Origin: Bacillota bacterium
GTDB lineage: Bacteria; Bacillota; DTU014
NCBI GenBank assembly: GCA_012719595.1
Contig: JAAYAB010000034.1
Coordinates: 32,902 to 96,901 of the forward strand
DNA length: 64,000 nt
Direction: 5' to 3'
This document shows, in pieces, positions 955-31,739 of the stretch (position 1 is its first letter; each line of letters starts with the position of its first letter). A model generated the notes under the pieces. The model ran no database searches and was not told the origin of the DNA. It saw only the letters and a list, made by a program, of their open reading frames with translations. A program made the position numbers and the translations under genes.

Positions 955-1085
955 CAAACGCAGGACGGCGCACCTCTCAGGCTTTCGCCAGGAAGTCCGC
1001 CGCCTTGGTGGGTGGGTTCCCCATATCGGTCGAGTGGGTTCTCAGCACACTCTCGCTCCATCATACACAGATCCTCGCGGATGTG

Positions 1086-2570
1086 TTACTCCATCCTAGA
1101 GGTCTCGGCATAGGCTGCAAGAGCGGCCTCTAGCCGCATCTTCGTAATGCCGCAGGCCACTTCGTCGACGCCGTCGATCCGCCCGGACGCCTTGTATGCT
1201 GCGGCGTGGCAGCCGCCTGAGCAAAGGTAGCGCGCCCAGCACCTCCTGCACCGAGGCTTCTCGAGCACCCCGACTCCTCGGAAACGGTCAGCCACATCCA
1301 GCCGCGTGACGCCAGACCACACGTCGCCCAGACGCAAGCCGGTGTCGCCGACGAATTGATGACAGGGATACAGGTCTCCTGAAGGCGTCACCGCCAGATA
1401 CTGGTTCCCTGCACCGCACCCCATGAGGCGCCTCTCATGGCACTGACCCGTGAGCGCTCCAAGGTTGAAGTGGAAGAACTCAAACGGGCGGCCTGCACGC
1501 CGAGCACTGCGATACTCGGTCACCAGCAATTCGTACTCCCGGCGCACGGCCGGGAGATCGTGCGTCCCGATTCCATACTCGGATTCAGGCGATCCCACTA
1601 CCGGCTCCATCGAGATGCGGTCGATTCCAAGTCCCAAGAGGTAAGCGACATCCTTGGCGAAGTCAAGGTTGGCTCTTGTATACGTGCCGCGGACGTAGTA
1701 ATCCCTGACGCCTGTACGTTCAAGATACTCAGAGATGCCGGCCGCTACCCGCGCGTGACTGCTCGTTCCGTCAGGGAACCTTCTCCATCTGTCATGCGTC
1801 TCCGGGCGCCCGTCGATGCTGAGTATGACGCTGAAGTGCATCCGGTCCATGTATTCGACGATCTCCGGGGTGATGCCGACCGCGTTTGTCGTGAGGCTGA
1901 AGTGGACGCTCTTGTTTGCTCTCGCGGCCGCCTCGAGCGCGTAGTCGGCGATCTGGACCACCGAGTCGAAGTTCAGAAGCGGCTCTCCGCCGAAGAAATC
2001 GACCTCCAGCTGCTTGACTGCTCCCGACTCGCGAATCATGAGATCGACGGCCGCCTTCCCCACCTCTGGCGGCATCAGGGCCGCATCGCCAAACGGCGGC
2101 TGCGAGCCGCCCTGCCTTCGCCGCCACGCGTCTGCGACGAAGCAGTACGAGCACGCGAGATTGCAGGCGTGGGCTGCATGCAGGCAGACGGCCTTCAGAG
2201 GACGGTCATTCGATCGAGCGCGGGGAGTTGTGGACTCAGTGTCAGGCGCGCCGACGAGAGACTCGCTGTCCGCGACGCCGGCATCTCGCGGAATCGGCGT
2301 GAGCAACCCTTGCTCCAGCATAGTCTCCAGGTCTCGATGGGCGCTCACAACCAGTTCTGCGTCATATCGGCCTCTCATCGAACCAACGATGCTCGCAAGC
2401 GGGTACACACCAAAAAGGTCGACGATCTCGGACAACACATCGTCGACCCGGTGCAGCGCTCCAGATTCAACGTCATACAGATACCGAGTGCCCAGGAATG
2501 TGAACACATGCCAGAACGGGTCTCTAGCCTCTCTCAGAGGCGCCCCGCCTTTTGAAAGGCTTGGATACAC
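1086..2570 (-). CDS. scfB: Radical SAM/SPASM-domain SCIFF peptide maturase (thioether-forming, TIGR03974-like)
   Basis: CNLACSYCF CxxxCxxC motif. N-terminal FWHVFTFLGTRYLYDVESGALHRVDD is typical of SCIFF maturases. C-terminus is Cys-rich SPASM. GTG start sits 9 nt after the stop of the SCIFF gene. Confidence 0.85.
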   Translation of the reverse strand: MYPSLSKGGAPLREARDPFWHVFTFLGTRYLYDVESGALHRVDDVLSEIVDLFGVYPLASIVGSMRGRYDAELVVSAHRDLETMLEQGLLTPIPRDAGVADSESLVGAPDTESTTPRARSNDRPLKAVCLHAAHACNLACSYCFVADAWRRRQGGSQPPFGDAALMPPEVGKAAVDLMIRESGAVKQLEVDFFGGEPLLNFDSVVQIADYALEAAARANKSVHFSLTTNAVGITPEIVEYMDRMHFSVILSIDGRPETHDRWRRFPDGTSSHARVAAGISEYLERTGVRDYYVRGTYTRANLDFAKDVAYLLGLGIDRISMEPVVGSPESEYGIGTHDLPAVRREYELLVTEYRSARRAGRPFEFFHFNLGALTGQCHERRLMGCGAGNQYLAVTPSGDLYPCHQFVGDTGLRLGDVWSGVTRLDVADRFRGVGVLEKPRCRRCWARYLCSGGCHAAAYKASGRIDGVDEVACGITKMRLEAALAAYAETSRME

Positions 2571-2579
2571 TTGTGATCC

Positions 2580-2747
2580 CTACTGCGTGCGAGCACAGGG
2601 CTGGTTGCCCACAGTGCAGGACGTCTTGCATGCCGACTGGCACGAAGTCTTGCACTCGTGGCACGCGGCGCGATTAAAGCTCTCACTCGTTCGAGGCGGA
2701 ATTATGTTAGTGGCGTGGCTCAGTCTTGTCTCAGCGGTTGTTGCCAA
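2580..2747 (-). CDS. scfA: SCIFF (six cysteines in forty-five residues) ranthipeptide precursor
   Basis: C-terminal core CHECKTSCQSACKTSCTVGNQPC has six Cys and matches the SCIFF signature (CGECQTSCQSACKTSCTVxNQ). TTG start with GGAGGA SD 7 nt upstream gives 55 aa. In-frame upstream ATGs (to 2852) lack an SD, so a longer 90-aa leader cannot be excluded. Confidence 0.7.
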   Translation of the reverse strand: MATTAETRLSHATNIIPPRTSESFNRAACHECKTSCQSACKTSCTVGNQPCARTQ

Positions 2748-2814
2748 TTGGGTCTCCTCCAGTTCAAAGTAAGCAGTTCGGCGTGTGAAGGGTGGTTGTC
2801 CAACGGGAAAGCGC

Positions 2815-3024
2815 CTACTTGCGGACGCACGGCTTCCCGCCATAGAACGCATTCCACTTGTTGCAGCGCTTGATATTGATCACCAGCTCACCGTTGTTAT
2901 GGCTACACGTGCCATCTGCGCCGTAAGCAGAACACGCTTTGCATATGCGGTTGATCTCTTCATCTGTCAGGTGGAAAATCACACTGCTCACCCCGCCCCG
3001 CACATTCTCATGCATATTATACAC
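2815..3024 (-). CDS. Questionable small Cys-rich ORF (59-69 aa, 5 Cys) inside the SCIFF operon leader
   Basis: Six-frame ORF only. The first start codons coincide with or lie upstream of the predicted -10/TSS. An in-frame GTG at 2991 follows a G-rich stretch. Has a CxxC...C...C...C pattern with loose resemblance to DUF1540-type small proteins. Confidence 0.2.
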   Translation of the reverse strand: MYNMHENVRGGVSSVIFHLTDEEINRICKACSAYGADGTCSHNNGELVINIKRCNKWNAFYGGKPCVRK

Positions 3025-3044
3025 GATTAGCTAGCAGTTGCCAA
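3016..3044 (-). promoter_or_regulatory. Strong sigma-A promoter of the SCIFF operon
   Basis: Minus strand reads TTGGCA (3039-3044), a 17-nt spacer, then extended -10 TGTATAAT (3016-3023). This predicts a roughly 260-nt leader before scfA. Confidence 0.55.
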
Positions 3045-3100
3045 CGAACAGGAAGGCGTCAGGTACTTTGTGCTCTAGTCCCTCCTCGCTTGTCTCACCG

Positions 3101-3131
3101 CACTGGTGTCAATCTGCTCCACTAGTGTCAA
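3101..3131 (-). repeat. Two 12-nt direct repeats TTGACAC[CT]AGTG, 19 bp apart, upstream of the SCIFF promoter
   Basis: Plus-strand CACTGGTGTCAA at 3101-3112 and CACTAGTGTCAA at 3120-3131, about 60-90 nt upstream of the -35. Confidence 0.4.
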
Positions 3132-3151
3132 CCTATCTCACTCGTGCTTCG

Positions 3152-4150
3152 CTACTGCAGAGCCTCTGATATGTCAGCCGACATCACGAGGCTCACCAGC
3201 TTCACAGACGCCTCGACGTCGATCATGTCGACCATCTCCGACGGACAGTGGATGTACCTCGAGGGAATCGAGATGACCCCCGATCGAACACCGTCCCGCG
3301 TGAGGTGAATCGCACCTGAATCCGTGCCGCCGGCTGTCAGAACCTCCAGCTGGTAAGGTACTCCGTTCCGCTCTGCGAGATCGACCAAGAGCTGTTTAAC
3401 CTTCGGATGTGCGATCACCGACTGGTCCTTCACCTTTATGGCAGTGCCTTTCCCGAGAGAAACGGCCATTCTGCGCGACTCGGGAGTGTCGCCTGTCCCC
3501 GTCACGTCGATGGCTATCCCCAGATCCGGGTCTATCCCGAATGCCGAGGTCGCAGCGCCCCTCAGCCCCACTTCTTCCTGAACGGTGAACGTGCAATAGA
3601 CCTCGCTTTGGCACTGTTCTGTGCGGCGCATGGCCTCTATCAAGACTGCGCATCCTATACGGTCGTCCATCGCCTTGGCCACGATTCTCTGGCCAAGATC
3701 GTCGAAGCCGTGAAGGTATGTCGCACAATCCCCTATTGAGATCAGTTCCTGTGCGGATTCCCTGCTGGTCGCGCCGATATCTATGAACAGCTTGTCGAGG
3801 TTCAGTTCCTTGATGTCATCGAGCTTCTCCATCCCGATAGTGCCGACGACTCCATTGGTGAACCTGACCCGCTGGCCGAAGAGTCTGTGCGGCGAAACCC
3901 CTCCTACGTTGCTGAACCGCACGAAGCCCTTCTCGTCTATGTCTGTGGCGATCATCCCGATTTCGTCCATATGCGCGGCGAACTGGATCTTCGGGCCAGT
4001 TCCCCGGCGGACGGCGATGAGATTGCCCAGAGCATCGACTCGGATCTCATCACAGTAGTCTTTGACCTCGCTCTTGATCGCTTCCCGGATCTCATCTTCG
4101 AAGCCGGAAGGCGAGCTAATGGAAGTGAGTCTTTTCACCAGGTCTTTCAT
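3152..4150 (-). CDS. M42 family metallo-aminopeptidase (TET/FrvX/YsdC-like), paralog 1
   Basis: FAAHMDEIGMIATD and C-terminal metal-binding motifs. ATG at 4150 (MKDLVKRL) follows a GAGGGGG SD. The ORF-track N-terminal extension was rejected. Confidence 0.8.
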   Translation of the reverse strand: MKDLVKRLTSISSPSGFEDEIREAIKSEVKDYCDEIRVDALGNLIAVRRGTGPKIQFAAHMDEIGMIATDIDEKGFVRFSNVGGVSPHRLFGQRVRFTNGVVGTIGMEKLDDIKELNLDKLFIDIGATSRESAQELISIGDCATYLHGFDDLGQRIVAKAMDDRIGCAVLIEAMRRTEQCQSEVYCTFTVQEEVGLRGAATSAFGIDPDLGIAIDVTGTGDTPESRRMAVSLGKGTAIKVKDQSVIAHPKVKQLLVDLAERNGVPYQLEVLTAGGTDSGAIHLTRDGVRSGVISIPSRYIHCPSEMVDMIDVEASVKLVSLVMSADISEALQ

Positions 4151-5175
4151 TGACTGGGCAACCCCCTCGTAGCAATACTTCGCAAAACAGCTGAAGCCAG
4201 CTTGACTGTGTTCTCGAAGTCGGTCAGATTGAGCACGGATACAGGTGAATGTATGTACCGGCACGGCACAGAAATGACTCCGGCAGGGACTCCGGTTCGA
4301 GATAGGGATATGGGTCCGGCGTCAGTTCCTCCGGTGGTCATCTGCCGCAGCTGATGAGGTATTCCCTCGGACTCGGCTACCTCTATCAACCGTGTGAAGA
4401 GCGGCCTGTTCACCACGACCGAGCGGTCCATGAAGGTGATCGCGGGTCCCTTCCCTAGCTTTGTGGACTGCTTGTGCTCCTTTGCGTCGGCCACGTCGCC
4501 CGCAGACGTGCCCTCGAACACGAGCGCAAGCGATGGCTTGATCGAGTACGCGGCCGTGCGCGCTCCTCTGGCTCCGATCTCCTCCTGTGTCGTAAAGGCG
4601 AAGTACACAGGGAGGTCGAAGTCCATCTCCAACAGCCTGAGGAGCACCGAACATCCCGCTCTGTCGTCCAAAGCTTTTCCCTTGAAGCACCCCTGGCCGA
4701 AGACGCCCGCTTTCGTGTCAAACGCTGCCACGTCTCCACGCGAGACAACCTTCTCAGCGTCATCCTTGTCCTTGGCACCTATATCGACATACAACGACTT
4801 GGCCTTCAGCGGTTTTTTCTGCTCATCAGGTTCCTGCAGGTGAATCGGTTTTGCGCCGATGACTCCCGGCACTTTGTCTTTGCCTACCCTGACAGTCTTT
4901 GATACGAGCACTCTGTGGTCGATCGAGCCGATTGTGTCGATCTTCAGCAGACCGGATTTGTCGATGCTCGTCACCATCAGTCCGACCTCATCCATATGAG
5001 CGGCCATCATGACGGCGGGACCCCTCTTGTCGCGTCCCTTCACAGCGATGAGGCTGCCCATAGCATCGAAGTACACATCGTCAGCCAGTGCCGAGGCCTT
5101 CCTATAGATGTAGGACCTGACTTCGTCCTCACGGCCGGAAACGCCATCGAGGTTGCTCAGCTCTTGAAGCAGCAC
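4147..5175 (-). CDS. M42 family metallo-aminopeptidase, paralog 2
   Basis: MMAAHMDEVGLMVTSID, ALDDRAGC. GTG start after a GGAGGG SD. Overlaps paralog 1 by 4 nt. Confidence 0.8.
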   Translation of the reverse strand: MLLQELSNLDGVSGREDEVRSYIYRKASALADDVYFDAMGSLIAVKGRDKRGPAVMMAAHMDEVGLMVTSIDKSGLLKIDTIGSIDHRVLVSKTVRVGKDKVPGVIGAKPIHLQEPDEQKKPLKAKSLYVDIGAKDKDDAEKVVSRGDVAAFDTKAGVFGQGCFKGKALDDRAGCSVLLRLLEMDFDLPVYFAFTTQEEIGARGARTAAYSIKPSLALVFEGTSAGDVADAKEHKQSTKLGKGPAITFMDRSVVVNRPLFTRLIEVAESEGIPHQLRQMTTGGTDAGPISLSRTGVPAGVISVPCRYIHSPVSVLNLTDFENTVKLASAVLRSIATRGLPSQ

Positions 5176-6230
5176 TTCAATCCCTCCACGAAATCAGAAT
5201 CCAGGCTGATGACGAACTGTGCGAGCAGACGTCCAGTCTCCTGTATGTCTTTCAAGCACACGGTCTCGACCGAGGTGTGCATGTACTTCAGCGGTATCGA
5301 TACGAGCCCGGTCGGCACGCCGTCTCTGACCATCTGTATCGCATAGGTATCCGTTCCTCTCGGGTTCGGGCTCGGCTCAGTCTGATACCTCACGCCGGCC
5401 TCATCGGCTGCAGCTTTGAGCCTTTCCAGAACTCGGGGATGAACCTGGGGCCCAATCGCCAGCACAGGACCCTTCCCAAGCTCATACGCCTCGCTGTCGT
5501 CGAGACCGGGCATGCTTCCGTGGGTGACATCGATGGCAATCCCCACATCTGGATCAATGCCGAATGCACTCACAAGGGCTCCGCGGAGACCCACCTCTTC
5601 CTGCACCGTCGCGACGCAGTAGACGTCAGCGGCATGCGAATAACCCTCCAACCTGCGGAGGCACTCGATCAGCGCAGCTACACCCGCTCGATCGTCCAGA
5701 GCCTTTCCGCTCCAGTGCGAGTTCCTCAGGGCGGTCAAATCCCGCTTTATGCTAATGAAGTCACCCACACTCACCTGCGCTGCCAGTTCGTCTGCCGGCA
5801 GCCCTGTGTCGATCGCCATGTCTTCGATCTTGACGGAGCTGTTGCGCTCATTCTCGTCCTGAATGTGGGGTGGCTTGGCACCAATGATGCCGGGTACATC
5901 ACGCCTGCCATGGACTACGACCTCCTGGCCGAGGAGAACCCGCACGTCTATCCCTCCGACCGAGTCGAATCGCACGAACTGGTCCTTGACCTCGGTCACA
6001 ATCAGGCCGATTTCGTCCATGTGAGCCGCGAACATGACCTTCGGCGCCGAAGGAGAGCTTCCGGCCTTACGTATCACGAGGTTCCCAAGGGCATCGCTCC
6101 GTATCTCCGTCGCCCAGCCTCTTGCTTCGCCGGACGTAAACAAGTCTGACACAACAGACGAGACTAGATGCTCTCTTCCTGATACCCCGGACGAAGTACA
6201 GAGCCTCTCCAGGAATTGGTCTAGCTTCAT
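5157..6230 (-). CDS. M42 family metallo-aminopeptidase, paralog 3
   Basis: MFAAHMDEIGLIVTEV, ALDDRAGVAAL. ATG follows GGAGGAGAAGGGAGAG. Confidence 0.8.
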   Translation of the reverse strand: MKLDQFLERLCTSSGVSGREHLVSSVVSDLFTSGEARGWATEIRSDALGNLVIRKAGSSPSAPKVMFAAHMDEIGLIVTEVKDQFVRFDSVGGIDVRVLLGQEVVVHGRRDVPGIIGAKPPHIQDENERNSSVKIEDMAIDTGLPADELAAQVSVGDFISIKRDLTALRNSHWSGKALDDRAGVAALIECLRRLEGYSHAADVYCVATVQEEVGLRGALVSAFGIDPDVGIAIDVTHGSMPGLDDSEAYELGKGPVLAIGPQVHPRVLERLKAAADEAGVRYQTEPSPNPRGTDTYAIQMVRDGVPTGLVSIPLKYMHTSVETVCLKDIQETGRLLAQFVISLDSDFVEGLKCCFKS

Positions 6231-7431: not shown

Positions 7432-7683
7432 TTACCTCTTCGCCTGCGCCGCGATCTCCTGCAGGCATGCTGCACATACGTTCTTGCCCTTGATCTGCTT
7501 GATGTCACTCGCGTTGCCGCAGAAGACGCAATCCGGAGCGTACTTCTTGAGGATCACCTCTTCGCCGTTGACGTATATCTCCATGGGATCTTTTTCGGCG
7601 ATCCCCAGGGTTCTTCGCAACTCAATCGGCAGCACGACTCGGCCTAGTTCATCCACTTTTCTGACTATTCCTGTTGACTTCAT
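7432..7683 (-). CDS. abrB: AbrB-family transition-state regulator
   Basis: MKSTGIVRKVDELGRVVLPIELRRTLGIAEKD is near-identical to the AbrB N-domain. SD GGAGAGGGG. The C-terminus carries four Cys. Confidence 0.9.
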   Translation of the reverse strand: MKSTGIVRKVDELGRVVLPIELRRTLGIAEKDPMEIYVNGEEVILKKYAPDCVFCGNASDIKQIKGKNVCAACLQEIAAQAKR

Positions 7684-10295: not shown

Positions 10296-10380
10296 TGGTG
10301 CCCGGGACCGGACTTGAACCGGTACGGGTTGCCCCACACGCCCCTCAAACGTGCGCGTCTGCCAATTCCGCCACCCGGGC
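10296..10380 (-). tRNA. tRNA-Leu (anticodon GAG)
   Basis: 85-nt type II tRNA with acceptor stem GCCCGGG/CCCGGGC, anticodon loop UUGAGGG, long variable arm, T-loop GGUUCAAGUCC, and an encoded CCA. Confidence 0.9.
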
Positions 10381-30981: not shown

Positions 30982-31632
<651 letters not shown>

Positions 31633-31692
31633 CTAGTGCCACCCGGACACCATCGACGAGGGTTGACCGGGATTCGGATCGGATTCCTTTCC

Positions 31693-31706
31693 AGCCTCTC
31701 TGGACT
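31693..31706 (-). promoter_or_regulatory. PyrR binding loop (AGUCCAGAGAGGCU), leader attenuator 1
   Basis: UUUAAGCCAGUCCAGAGAGGCUGGAAAGG matches the B. subtilis BL1 consensus. Confidence 0.75.
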
Positions 31707-31739
31707 GGCTTAAAGGTGCGCATCGATCTTTTGATGTTT

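Follow-up and report, generated by a model that had tools for sequence, protein, structure and literature searches.

Examination of a 64-kb stretch of contig JAAYAB010000034.1, hereafter the window, revealed a locus for a SCIFF peptide (ranthipeptide), a class among the peptides that are ribosomally synthesized and modified post-translationally (RiPPs). The locus comprises the precursor gene scfA, the gene scfB for its radical S-adenosylmethionine (SAM)/SPASM maturase and, directly upstream of scfA, a short gene for a five-cysteine protein, designated here as orfX. The three genes probably form a unit on the minus strand in the order promoter (3044–3016), orfX (2982–2815), scfA (2747–2580) and scfB (2570–1086), with the following features:

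3016–3044, minus strand: putative promoter of the sigma-70 type, TTGGCA-17 nt-TATAAT, with 11 of 12 consensus matches
2815–2982, minus strand: orfX, 168 nt, 55 aa, GTG start, five Cys, ribosome-binding site (RBS) GGGGTGAGCAGT
2748–2814, minus strand: 67-nt spacer between orfX and scfA, with the scfA RBS GGAGGAG at its end
2580–2747, minus strand: scfA, 55 aa, TTG start; leader residues 1–28, core residues 29–55
1086–2570, minus strand: scfB, 494 aa, GTG start; radical-SAM/SPASM enzyme with a CxxxCxxC motif

The scfA–scfB pair is a divergent but ordinary member of the known SCIFF class, lying near the edge of its hidden Markov model (HMM) definitions, and its linkage with orfX turns it into a SCIFF system of a modestly new type. 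The useful result is an unnamed five-Cys protein tied to scfA–scfB in three deeply diverged clades. The related loci compared with the window are labelled L001–L050, among which L002–L027 are the SCIFF loci checked for orfX.

The scfA precursor and the scfB maturase

The initial annotation, made from the sequence alone, had recognized a SCIFF precursor with a radical-SAM/SPASM maturase and had proposed an HMM search as a test; this search confirmed both genes. The scfA product scored 60.6 bits against TIGR03973 (cutoff 50, E 1e-16) and 60.4 bits against PF13165 (cutoff 27), which is far beyond chance, while the scfB product scored 428 bits against TIGR03974 (cutoff 425, E 4e-128). The six Cys residues of ScfA are located at positions 29, 32, 36, 40, 44 and 51, the C-terminal end being ...CHECKTSCQSACKTSCTVGNQPCARTQ, and their spacing (C-x2-C-x3-C-x3-C-x3-C-x6-C) fits the SCIFF precursor criterion. 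According to the open reading frame (ORF) coordinates, the six-Cys gene was also correctly placed 9 nt before the CxxxCxxC/SPASM gene. This gap between the scfA stop and the scfB start agrees with the proximity rule of Haft and Haft, by which a SCIFF precursor gene lies no more than 500 bp from the ScfB radical-SAM gene (PMC5300114).

The core motif SCQSACKTSCTV.NQ.C was invariant among nine diverse ScfA sequences, and the core of the window ScfA is identical to it. In comparison with L001, the nearest species-level relative (ScfB 62% identical), pN was 0.376 in the leader and 0.095 in the core. A fast-evolving leader joined to a slow core is the pattern expected for a RiPP precursor. The leader itself departs from the canonical form, M-K-H-I-K-T at the start and GG at the end, as had been pointed out initially. 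ScfA has 55 aa versus about 45 and carries an N-terminal extension of about nine residues, AA replaces GG before the first Cys, most of the other leader residues differ, and TIGR03973 was aligned only from profile position 9. Nevertheless, canonical SCIFFs have the same distance (19 residues) between the conserved His and the first Cys. As a rule, leaders are not counted as defining for SCIFF precursors.

The start of scfA had been regarded as ambiguous between TTG at 2747 and ATG at 2852. The latter was rejected, being situated within orfX in a different reading frame. The RBS GGAGGAG lies 6 nt upstream of TTG 2747, and this TTG is kept in L001, L034 and L035. In L001 a TGA stop stands directly 5′ of the TTG; therefore, the scfA frame cannot extend upstream there. 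Given the RBS, the conserved TTG and the closed upstream frame in L001, TTG 2747 is the predicted start of scfA, and the ambiguity disappears. For scfB, the GTG at 2570 is kept as the start in L035 and L001, and the sole in-frame alternative, GTG 2507, is GTT in L035.

The QhpD and PapB family models rank among the top ScfB matches; scfB remained below the cutoffs of the not_ScfB model NF040492 (358.8 versus 855), the PapB-family maturase model NF047865 (229.7 versus 340 bits) and the QhpD model TIGR03906 (232.6 versus 453 bits). The SPASM model TIGR04085 gave 62.9 bits (cutoff 27). Since scfA and scfB pass the curated cutoffs while the competing maturase models fall well short of theirs, the two genes are a genuine SCIFF precursor/maturase pair.

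The counterpart used for comparison was the structurally characterized CteA/CteB of Clostridium (Acetivibrio) thermocellum, whose maturase (crystal structure 5WGG/5WHY) has the same architecture: an N-terminus resembling a RiPP recognition element (RRE), a radical-SAM core and a SPASM domain. A phmmer search aligned ScfB with CteB over residues 20–487 (E 2e-106). The CteB ligands are C104/C108/C111 for the radical-SAM cluster, C344/C362/C413 for auxiliary cluster 1 and C400/C403/C409/C432 for auxiliary cluster 2 (PMC10177961). After allowing for an offset of 3 in the numbering of the CteB PDB chain, these correspond in ScfB to C136/C140/C143, C385/C403/C454 and C441/C444/C450/C473, respectively, so that all 10 Fe-S ligand Cys of CteB are present as Cys in ScfB. 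ScfB residues 20–92 align with residues 7–79 of the CteB chain, i.e., with the N-terminal RRE-like domain, and by analogy with the CteB structure this part of ScfB probably binds the leader. ScfB differs from CteB by an N-terminal tail of about 19 residues and by a linker insertion of about 15–25 residues before the radical-SAM core, and the two proteins are only about 40% identical. The CteA core SCQSACKTSCTVGNQxC is identical to that of ScfA, including the donor fourth Cys and the acceptor Thr after the fifth Cys, whereas the leaders are different (SHATNIIPPR...RAA in ScfA versus KHIKT...GG in CteA), and the window locus adds orfX 5′ of the precursor.

The first SCIFF system characterized in vitro, Tte1186a/Tte1186 of Caldanaerobacter subterraneus, belongs to the same family, and a single Cys32–Thr37 thioether and three [4Fe-4S] clusters were demonstrated for it (PMC8326336, PMC10177961). 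ScfA and ScfB differ from this pair in the same way as from CteA/CteB; for this system, whose locus was not inspected here, no gene like orfX has been reported. In both CteA and Tte1186a the fourth Cys (Cys32) was mapped as joined to Thr37; one study gives Thr34 and places the bond at C-gamma (PMC8326336, PMC10177961). The residues equivalent to this donor and acceptor (Cys40, and Thr45 or Thr42) are present and conserved in ScfA.

Family membership, the complete cluster ligands and the donor and acceptor residues were observed in the locus, and we infer the chemistry and the crosslink positions from the SCIFF/ranthipeptide model adopted from PMC8326336 and PMC10177961. According to this model, ScfB would bind the ScfA leader via its N-terminal RRE-like domain. 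Then, the [4Fe-4S] cluster held by the CxxxCxxC motif would reductively cleave SAM, and the resulting radical would abstract a hydrogen atom from a side-chain carbon of a core residue. With the help of the two SPASM auxiliary clusters, ScfB would form at least one thioether between a Cys and a side-chain (non-alpha) carbon. By analogy with Cys32–Thr37 of CteA, the link in ScfA would run from Cys40 to Thr45 (or Thr42).

The orfX gene and its family

The distance of about 262 nt between the promoter and scfA had initially been described as an unusually long 5′ leader of about 260 nt. Instead, it holds a conserved gene: about 27 nt of 5′ untranslated region (UTR), the 168-nt orfX and the 67-nt spacer. 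The protein sequence of orfX is MIFHLTDEEINRICKACSAYGADGTCSHNNGELVINIKRCNKWNAFYGGKPCVRK. Based on the Nei–Gojobori method, orfX compared with L001 gave dN 0.072 and dS 1.30 (ratio about 0.055), and compared with L035 gave dN 0.023 and dS 0.32. There were 21 synonymous versus 9 non-synonymous changes, and the two other frames of the same DNA showed the reverse relation, dN > dS. When the locus was aligned with L034, L035 and L001, conservation covered the promoter, the 5′ UTR of about 27 nt, the RBS and orfX with its start, while the DNA 5′ of the −35 box and the DNA between orfX and the scfA RBS could no longer be aligned with L001. GenBank contains an identical 55-aa protein from a 'Firmicutes bacterium' MAG, annotated as hypothetical (GXX08_01825, NLU40926.1). 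Judged by its pattern of substitution, orfX is a real protein-coding gene under strong purifying selection.

To outline the family, an exhaustive profile search was used, in which all 1.84 billion 50%-identity representatives were read. Nine matches were obtained: the cluster of orfX itself, five convincing homologue clusters (53–60 aa) and three artefacts among low-complexity repeat proteins. A word-indexed search with the orfX family alignment added TCL63733.1 (UniRef A0A4R1RD26) from Hydrogenispora ethanolica. The family consists of about six clusters at 50% identity, distributed among Bacillota MAGs and the cultured H. ethanolica. The homologues from other clades share 35–43% identity, and all of them are labelled 'hypothetical protein', with neither a name nor a domain assignment; no study of them was found. 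M1, L5, C14, C17, C26, R39, C40, W43 and C52 are invariant in the family; position 44 is almost always Asp or Asn (Asn in the window clade), and position 47 almost always aromatic. The N-terminus M[IV][FY]xL is kept in all homologues. TCL63733.1 shares with orfX the five Cys, R39, W43 and the position directly 5′ of scfA–scfB.

Searches with orfX against known families gave no significant result. In Pfam the window protein had no match and the best of eight family members reached E 0.02; the best NCBIfam match had E 0.027 at 13 bits, and the best match among PDB chains had E 0.5. Comparison of the orfX family with ScfA by hhalign gave a probability of 0.1%, and the idea that orfX is a degenerate SCIFF duplicate was rejected on this ground. 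AlphaFold2 models of orfX had a mean predicted local distance difference test score (pLDDT) of 54.4 with an 8-sequence alignment and 51.8 with a 14-sequence alignment; they share only the helices at about 7–16 and 40–46, and their confidence is too low for use. No account of orfX was found in the SCIFF literature searched, which comprised open-access full text only.

In all eight lineages with a readable context, orfX is located immediately 5′ of scfA–scfB. These lineages are represented by the window, L035, L001 (with L028–L033), L037 (with L038), L049 (Hydrogenispora), L036, L041 and L045; a ninth, L040, was uninformative, its DNA ending about 100 nt past a tRNA gene. The surroundings of the unit are different in each clade. 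In the window clade, three M42 peptidase genes lie upstream and an aminotransferase gene downstream; in the Hydrogenispora clade, a DNA methyltransferase gene lies upstream and a TRAM methyltransferase region downstream; in the third clade, purD lies upstream and an unannotated gene for a 320-aa protein downstream. A shared synteny of the window and Hydrogenispora via the DNA methyltransferase was considered and rejected, the two enzymes being non-orthologous and similar at the level of motifs only, with two shared motifs in opposite order. The ScfB proteins of the orfX clades are 37–41% identical to each other, no higher than to the ScfBs of other Bacillota. Among the 26 other SCIFF loci (L002–L027), hmmsearch --max on six-frame ORFs detected no orfX homologue, and no Cys-rich ORF was present within 800 nt upstream of scfA. 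Thus, orfX is restricted to certain lineages, and the only place in a genome where it is known to occur is the 5′ side of scfA.

Both small genes of the locus are affected by annotation errors in public data. Among L029, L034, L045–L048 and L050, gene callers missed scfA in several assemblies, and in one case orfX is fused to a false N-terminal extension of 56 residues (P0006, 113 aa, one of the five homologue clusters). These cases illustrate how readily both small genes escape annotation, and the window locus is a further example, in which what looked like a 'long leader' in the raw sequence concealed a short gene.

Transcription of the unit and the possible role of orfX

The predicted transcription start is at about 3009, about 27 nt 5′ of the orfX start. 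The promoter at 3044–3016 is identical in L034 and L035 and almost unchanged in L001; the same TTGGCA-17-TATAAT stands 5′ of orfX in H. ethanolica (L049), and L037 and L040 likewise show the hexamers. The consensus scan gave three sites versus 0.5 expected in shuffled sequences, with only one promoter-like site upstream of orfX. The near-consensus promoter described initially was thus recovered, but its extended −10 element was not: the −10 region reads GTGTATAAT (cGTGTATAAT), where TG abuts TATAAT without a spacer base, and the scan did not score this box as extended.

In the orfX–scfA spacer, the scan detected no promoter-like or terminator-like site. Its minimum free energy (MFE) was −7.1 kcal/mol, weaker than that of shuffled sequences (z = +1.48), and only the RBS is conserved in comparison with L001. 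Since the spacer contains no promoter, terminator or stable hairpin, orfX and scfA are likely to be co-transcribed. For the window clade, a single orfX–scfA–scfB transcript from the 3044–3016 promoter is the simplest reading and most probably the correct one. Two features mark the possible end of this operon:

963–1004, minus strand: possible operon end, formed by a GC-rich hairpin and then UGCGUUUGUUG, immediately ahead of the promoter-like site that belongs to the aminotransferase gene downstream; weak evidence
954–925: promoter-like site TTGACA-18-AAGAAT of the downstream aminotransferase gene, found by the scan

The hairpin at 963–1004 appeared in both the MFE and the centroid folds of 940–1085, and it was not called by the terminator scan because of its weak T-run.

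The other clades have a different arrangement. The tRNA-Ala(CGC) genes observed in the Hydrogenispora-type loci are situated at 5184–5259 in L037, 6182–6257 in L049 and 826–901 in L040, and begin 5–31 nt past the orfX stop. The apparent unit there consists of the promoter, orfX, the tRNA, scfA, a hairpin and scfB, in L049 the hairpin 3′ of scfA being terminator-like; a tRNA within a RiPP locus is unusual.

Based on the above results, we suggest as the best explanation that the SCIFF pair and orfX form a co-transcribed three-gene unit in which orfX may be a functional partner, and we hold this to be probable. Several points weigh against it. The promoter, the transcription start and the co-transcription are all predictions. 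The two genes need not share a transcript in every clade, given the tRNA-Ala(CGC) gene between orfX and scfA in L037, L049 and L040, and given the order in L036, L041 and L045, where orfX is followed by a terminator-like hairpin and scfA is preceded by a promoter-like block that is conserved. This block, located 5′ of the scfA RBS, has the form GGGCAGGATAT-N13-GGAATAA...GGTGAATGGGTG (about 5225–5290 in L041, with equivalents in L036 and L045), and it may resemble a promoter of the forespore sigma type (SigF/SigG). In other words, the orfX–scfA adjacency is conserved, and strict co-transcription may not be. Furthermore, the absence of orfX from 26 SCIFF loci means that it is not generally needed by SCIFF, and its hosts, all of them Bacillota of poor classification, may be relatives of each other, in which case the adjacency could partly reflect shared descent. 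Finally, ScfB exceeds the TIGR03974 cutoff by just 3 bits, and the orfX models, at pLDDT 52–54, do not back any particular fold or metal site.

Alternatively, the locus would be a plain two-gene SCIFF system and orfX a real but functionally unrelated neighbour, held in place by shared descent or by a shared strong promoter. We regard this as possible but rather doubtful. It would account for the lack of orfX in 26 diverse SCIFF loci, for the tRNA-Ala gene that splits orfX from scfA in the Hydrogenispora-type loci and for the terminator-like hairpin 3′ of orfX in the purD-linked clade, and no structural or sequence feature connects orfX with radical-SAM chemistry; on the other hand, it leaves unexplained why orfX is adjacent in eight of eight lineages with wholly different flanks and ScfBs of only 37–41% identity, and why no homologue was found in any other context. 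An unlikely alternative is that orfX is a second substrate of ScfB, crosslinked as QhpC is by QhpD, for instance at C40-x3-D/N44. PapA/PapB (freyrasin) and QhpC/QhpD (quinohemoprotein amine dehydrogenase) have homologous radical-SAM/SPASM maturases that make Cys-to-side-chain thioethers, and both models are among the top ScfB matches. PapB links Cys to the C-beta of Asp in CX3D motifs (PMC10177961). An invariant Cys of orfX has, like the CX3D of PapA, an Asp at +4 (Asn in the window clade), and its N-terminus M[IV][FY]xL[ST] is conserved as a recognition sequence would be. QhpD provides a precedent, as it modifies a small Cys-rich protein and not a leader-containing peptide. Still, the argument depends on one short motif that may be due to chance. 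Compared with PapA, ScfA lacks CX3D repeats and orfX has a single C-x3-D/N motif. In addition, orfX is conserved over its whole length, unlike leader-plus-core precursors, and has no detectable relation to ScfA by hhalign; no similarity of QhpC to orfX was detected either, so that this comparison is a lead and not a test.

Two further readings concern the genes themselves, and both are very improbable. In one, the 260 nt before scfA would have a regulatory role without coding for protein, as a riboswitch or attenuator leader, and the ORF would be spurious. The distance between promoter and scfA is indeed of this size, but the excess of synonymous changes is confined to the orfX frame, homologues are recognizable at the protein level in other clades, no Rfam family matched 2500–3200 even at E ≤ 1, and neither the orfX 5′ UTR nor the 67-nt spacer folded better than shuffled controls; a long untranslated leader or riboswitch was rejected for these reasons. 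In the other, the radical-SAM enzyme would not be a true ScfB but a 'not_ScfB' orphan, a PapB-type enzyme or a QhpD. The narrow TIGR03974 score and the linker insertion and N-terminal tail relative to CteB could be read in this way, but the enzyme gene lies 9 nt from a bona fide scfA, the rival models stay far under their cutoffs, and on TIGR03974 the L001 orthologue scores 449 and the other orfX-linked ScfBs score 526–597.

Returning to orfX as a functional partner of the SCIFF pair, its five invariant Cys, with a CxxC ending a predicted helix, suggest the binding of a metal or an Fe-S cluster, and a partner of this kind would be our best guess from the conserved adjacency only. More broadly, and tentatively, orfX could be an unrecognized third component of some SCIFF systems, acting as a metal or Fe-S partner, as a chaperone or, in the manner of QhpC, as a second ScfB substrate. 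We find this conceivable, somewhat short of probable. If it is true, the occurrence of orfX in the cultured H. ethanolica would open an experimental way to the role that SCIFF peptides play in the cell. For the members studied so far, only one thioether has been mapped, and a role in quorum sensing has been proposed. If orfX is a functional partner, it may reveal what the five unmodified Cys of SCIFF do (metal binding or protein–protein thioethers), as well as how ScfB is supplied or regulated.

Host and other features of the window

The window has a G+C content of about 58–60% and belongs to a Bacillota (Firmicutes) metagenome-assembled genome (MAG); the closest genome in the GTDB species set carries the label 'uncultured Clostridia bacterium'. 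The initial annotation had described the genome as high-GC and not Clostridium-like. In the same scan, SCIFF loci were found in genomes of Moorellaceae, Peptococcaceae, Thermincola, Sporomusaceae, Selenomonadales and Oscillospiraceae, and SCIFF is described as widespread in Clostridia (review PMC8326336). The 26 loci without orfX stem from these and other groups. As SCIFF spans many families of anaerobic Bacillota, the host is no surprise.

Directly 5′ of the orfX promoter, at 3152–6230 on the minus strand, there are three tandem paralogous genes for M42 aminopeptidases (TET/FrvX type). Their participation as SCIFF leader peptidases was considered and found no support: they adjoin SCIFF in the window clade only, and the idea is pure speculation. 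Two copies of TTGACAC(T/C)AGTG, 19 nt apart, lie at 3101–3131 on the minus strand, about 60–90 nt 5′ of the −35 box. In L034 and L035 the first copy is partly retained and the second is lacking, and neither copy aligns in L001. These repeats may represent a binding site or else alternative −35 boxes.

Further from the locus, the minus strand at 7432–7683 encodes an 83-aa protein of the AbrB/MazE type (SpoVT-AbrB) with a C-terminal CxxC...CxxC extension, kept beside a methyltransferase gene in L028–L032. A PyrR-binding attenuator (RF00515, 56.7 bits versus a gathering score of 54) is present at 31590–31720 and a tRNA-Leu(GAG) gene at 10296–10380, both on the minus strand; they are the only Rfam and ARAGORN matches in the whole window.

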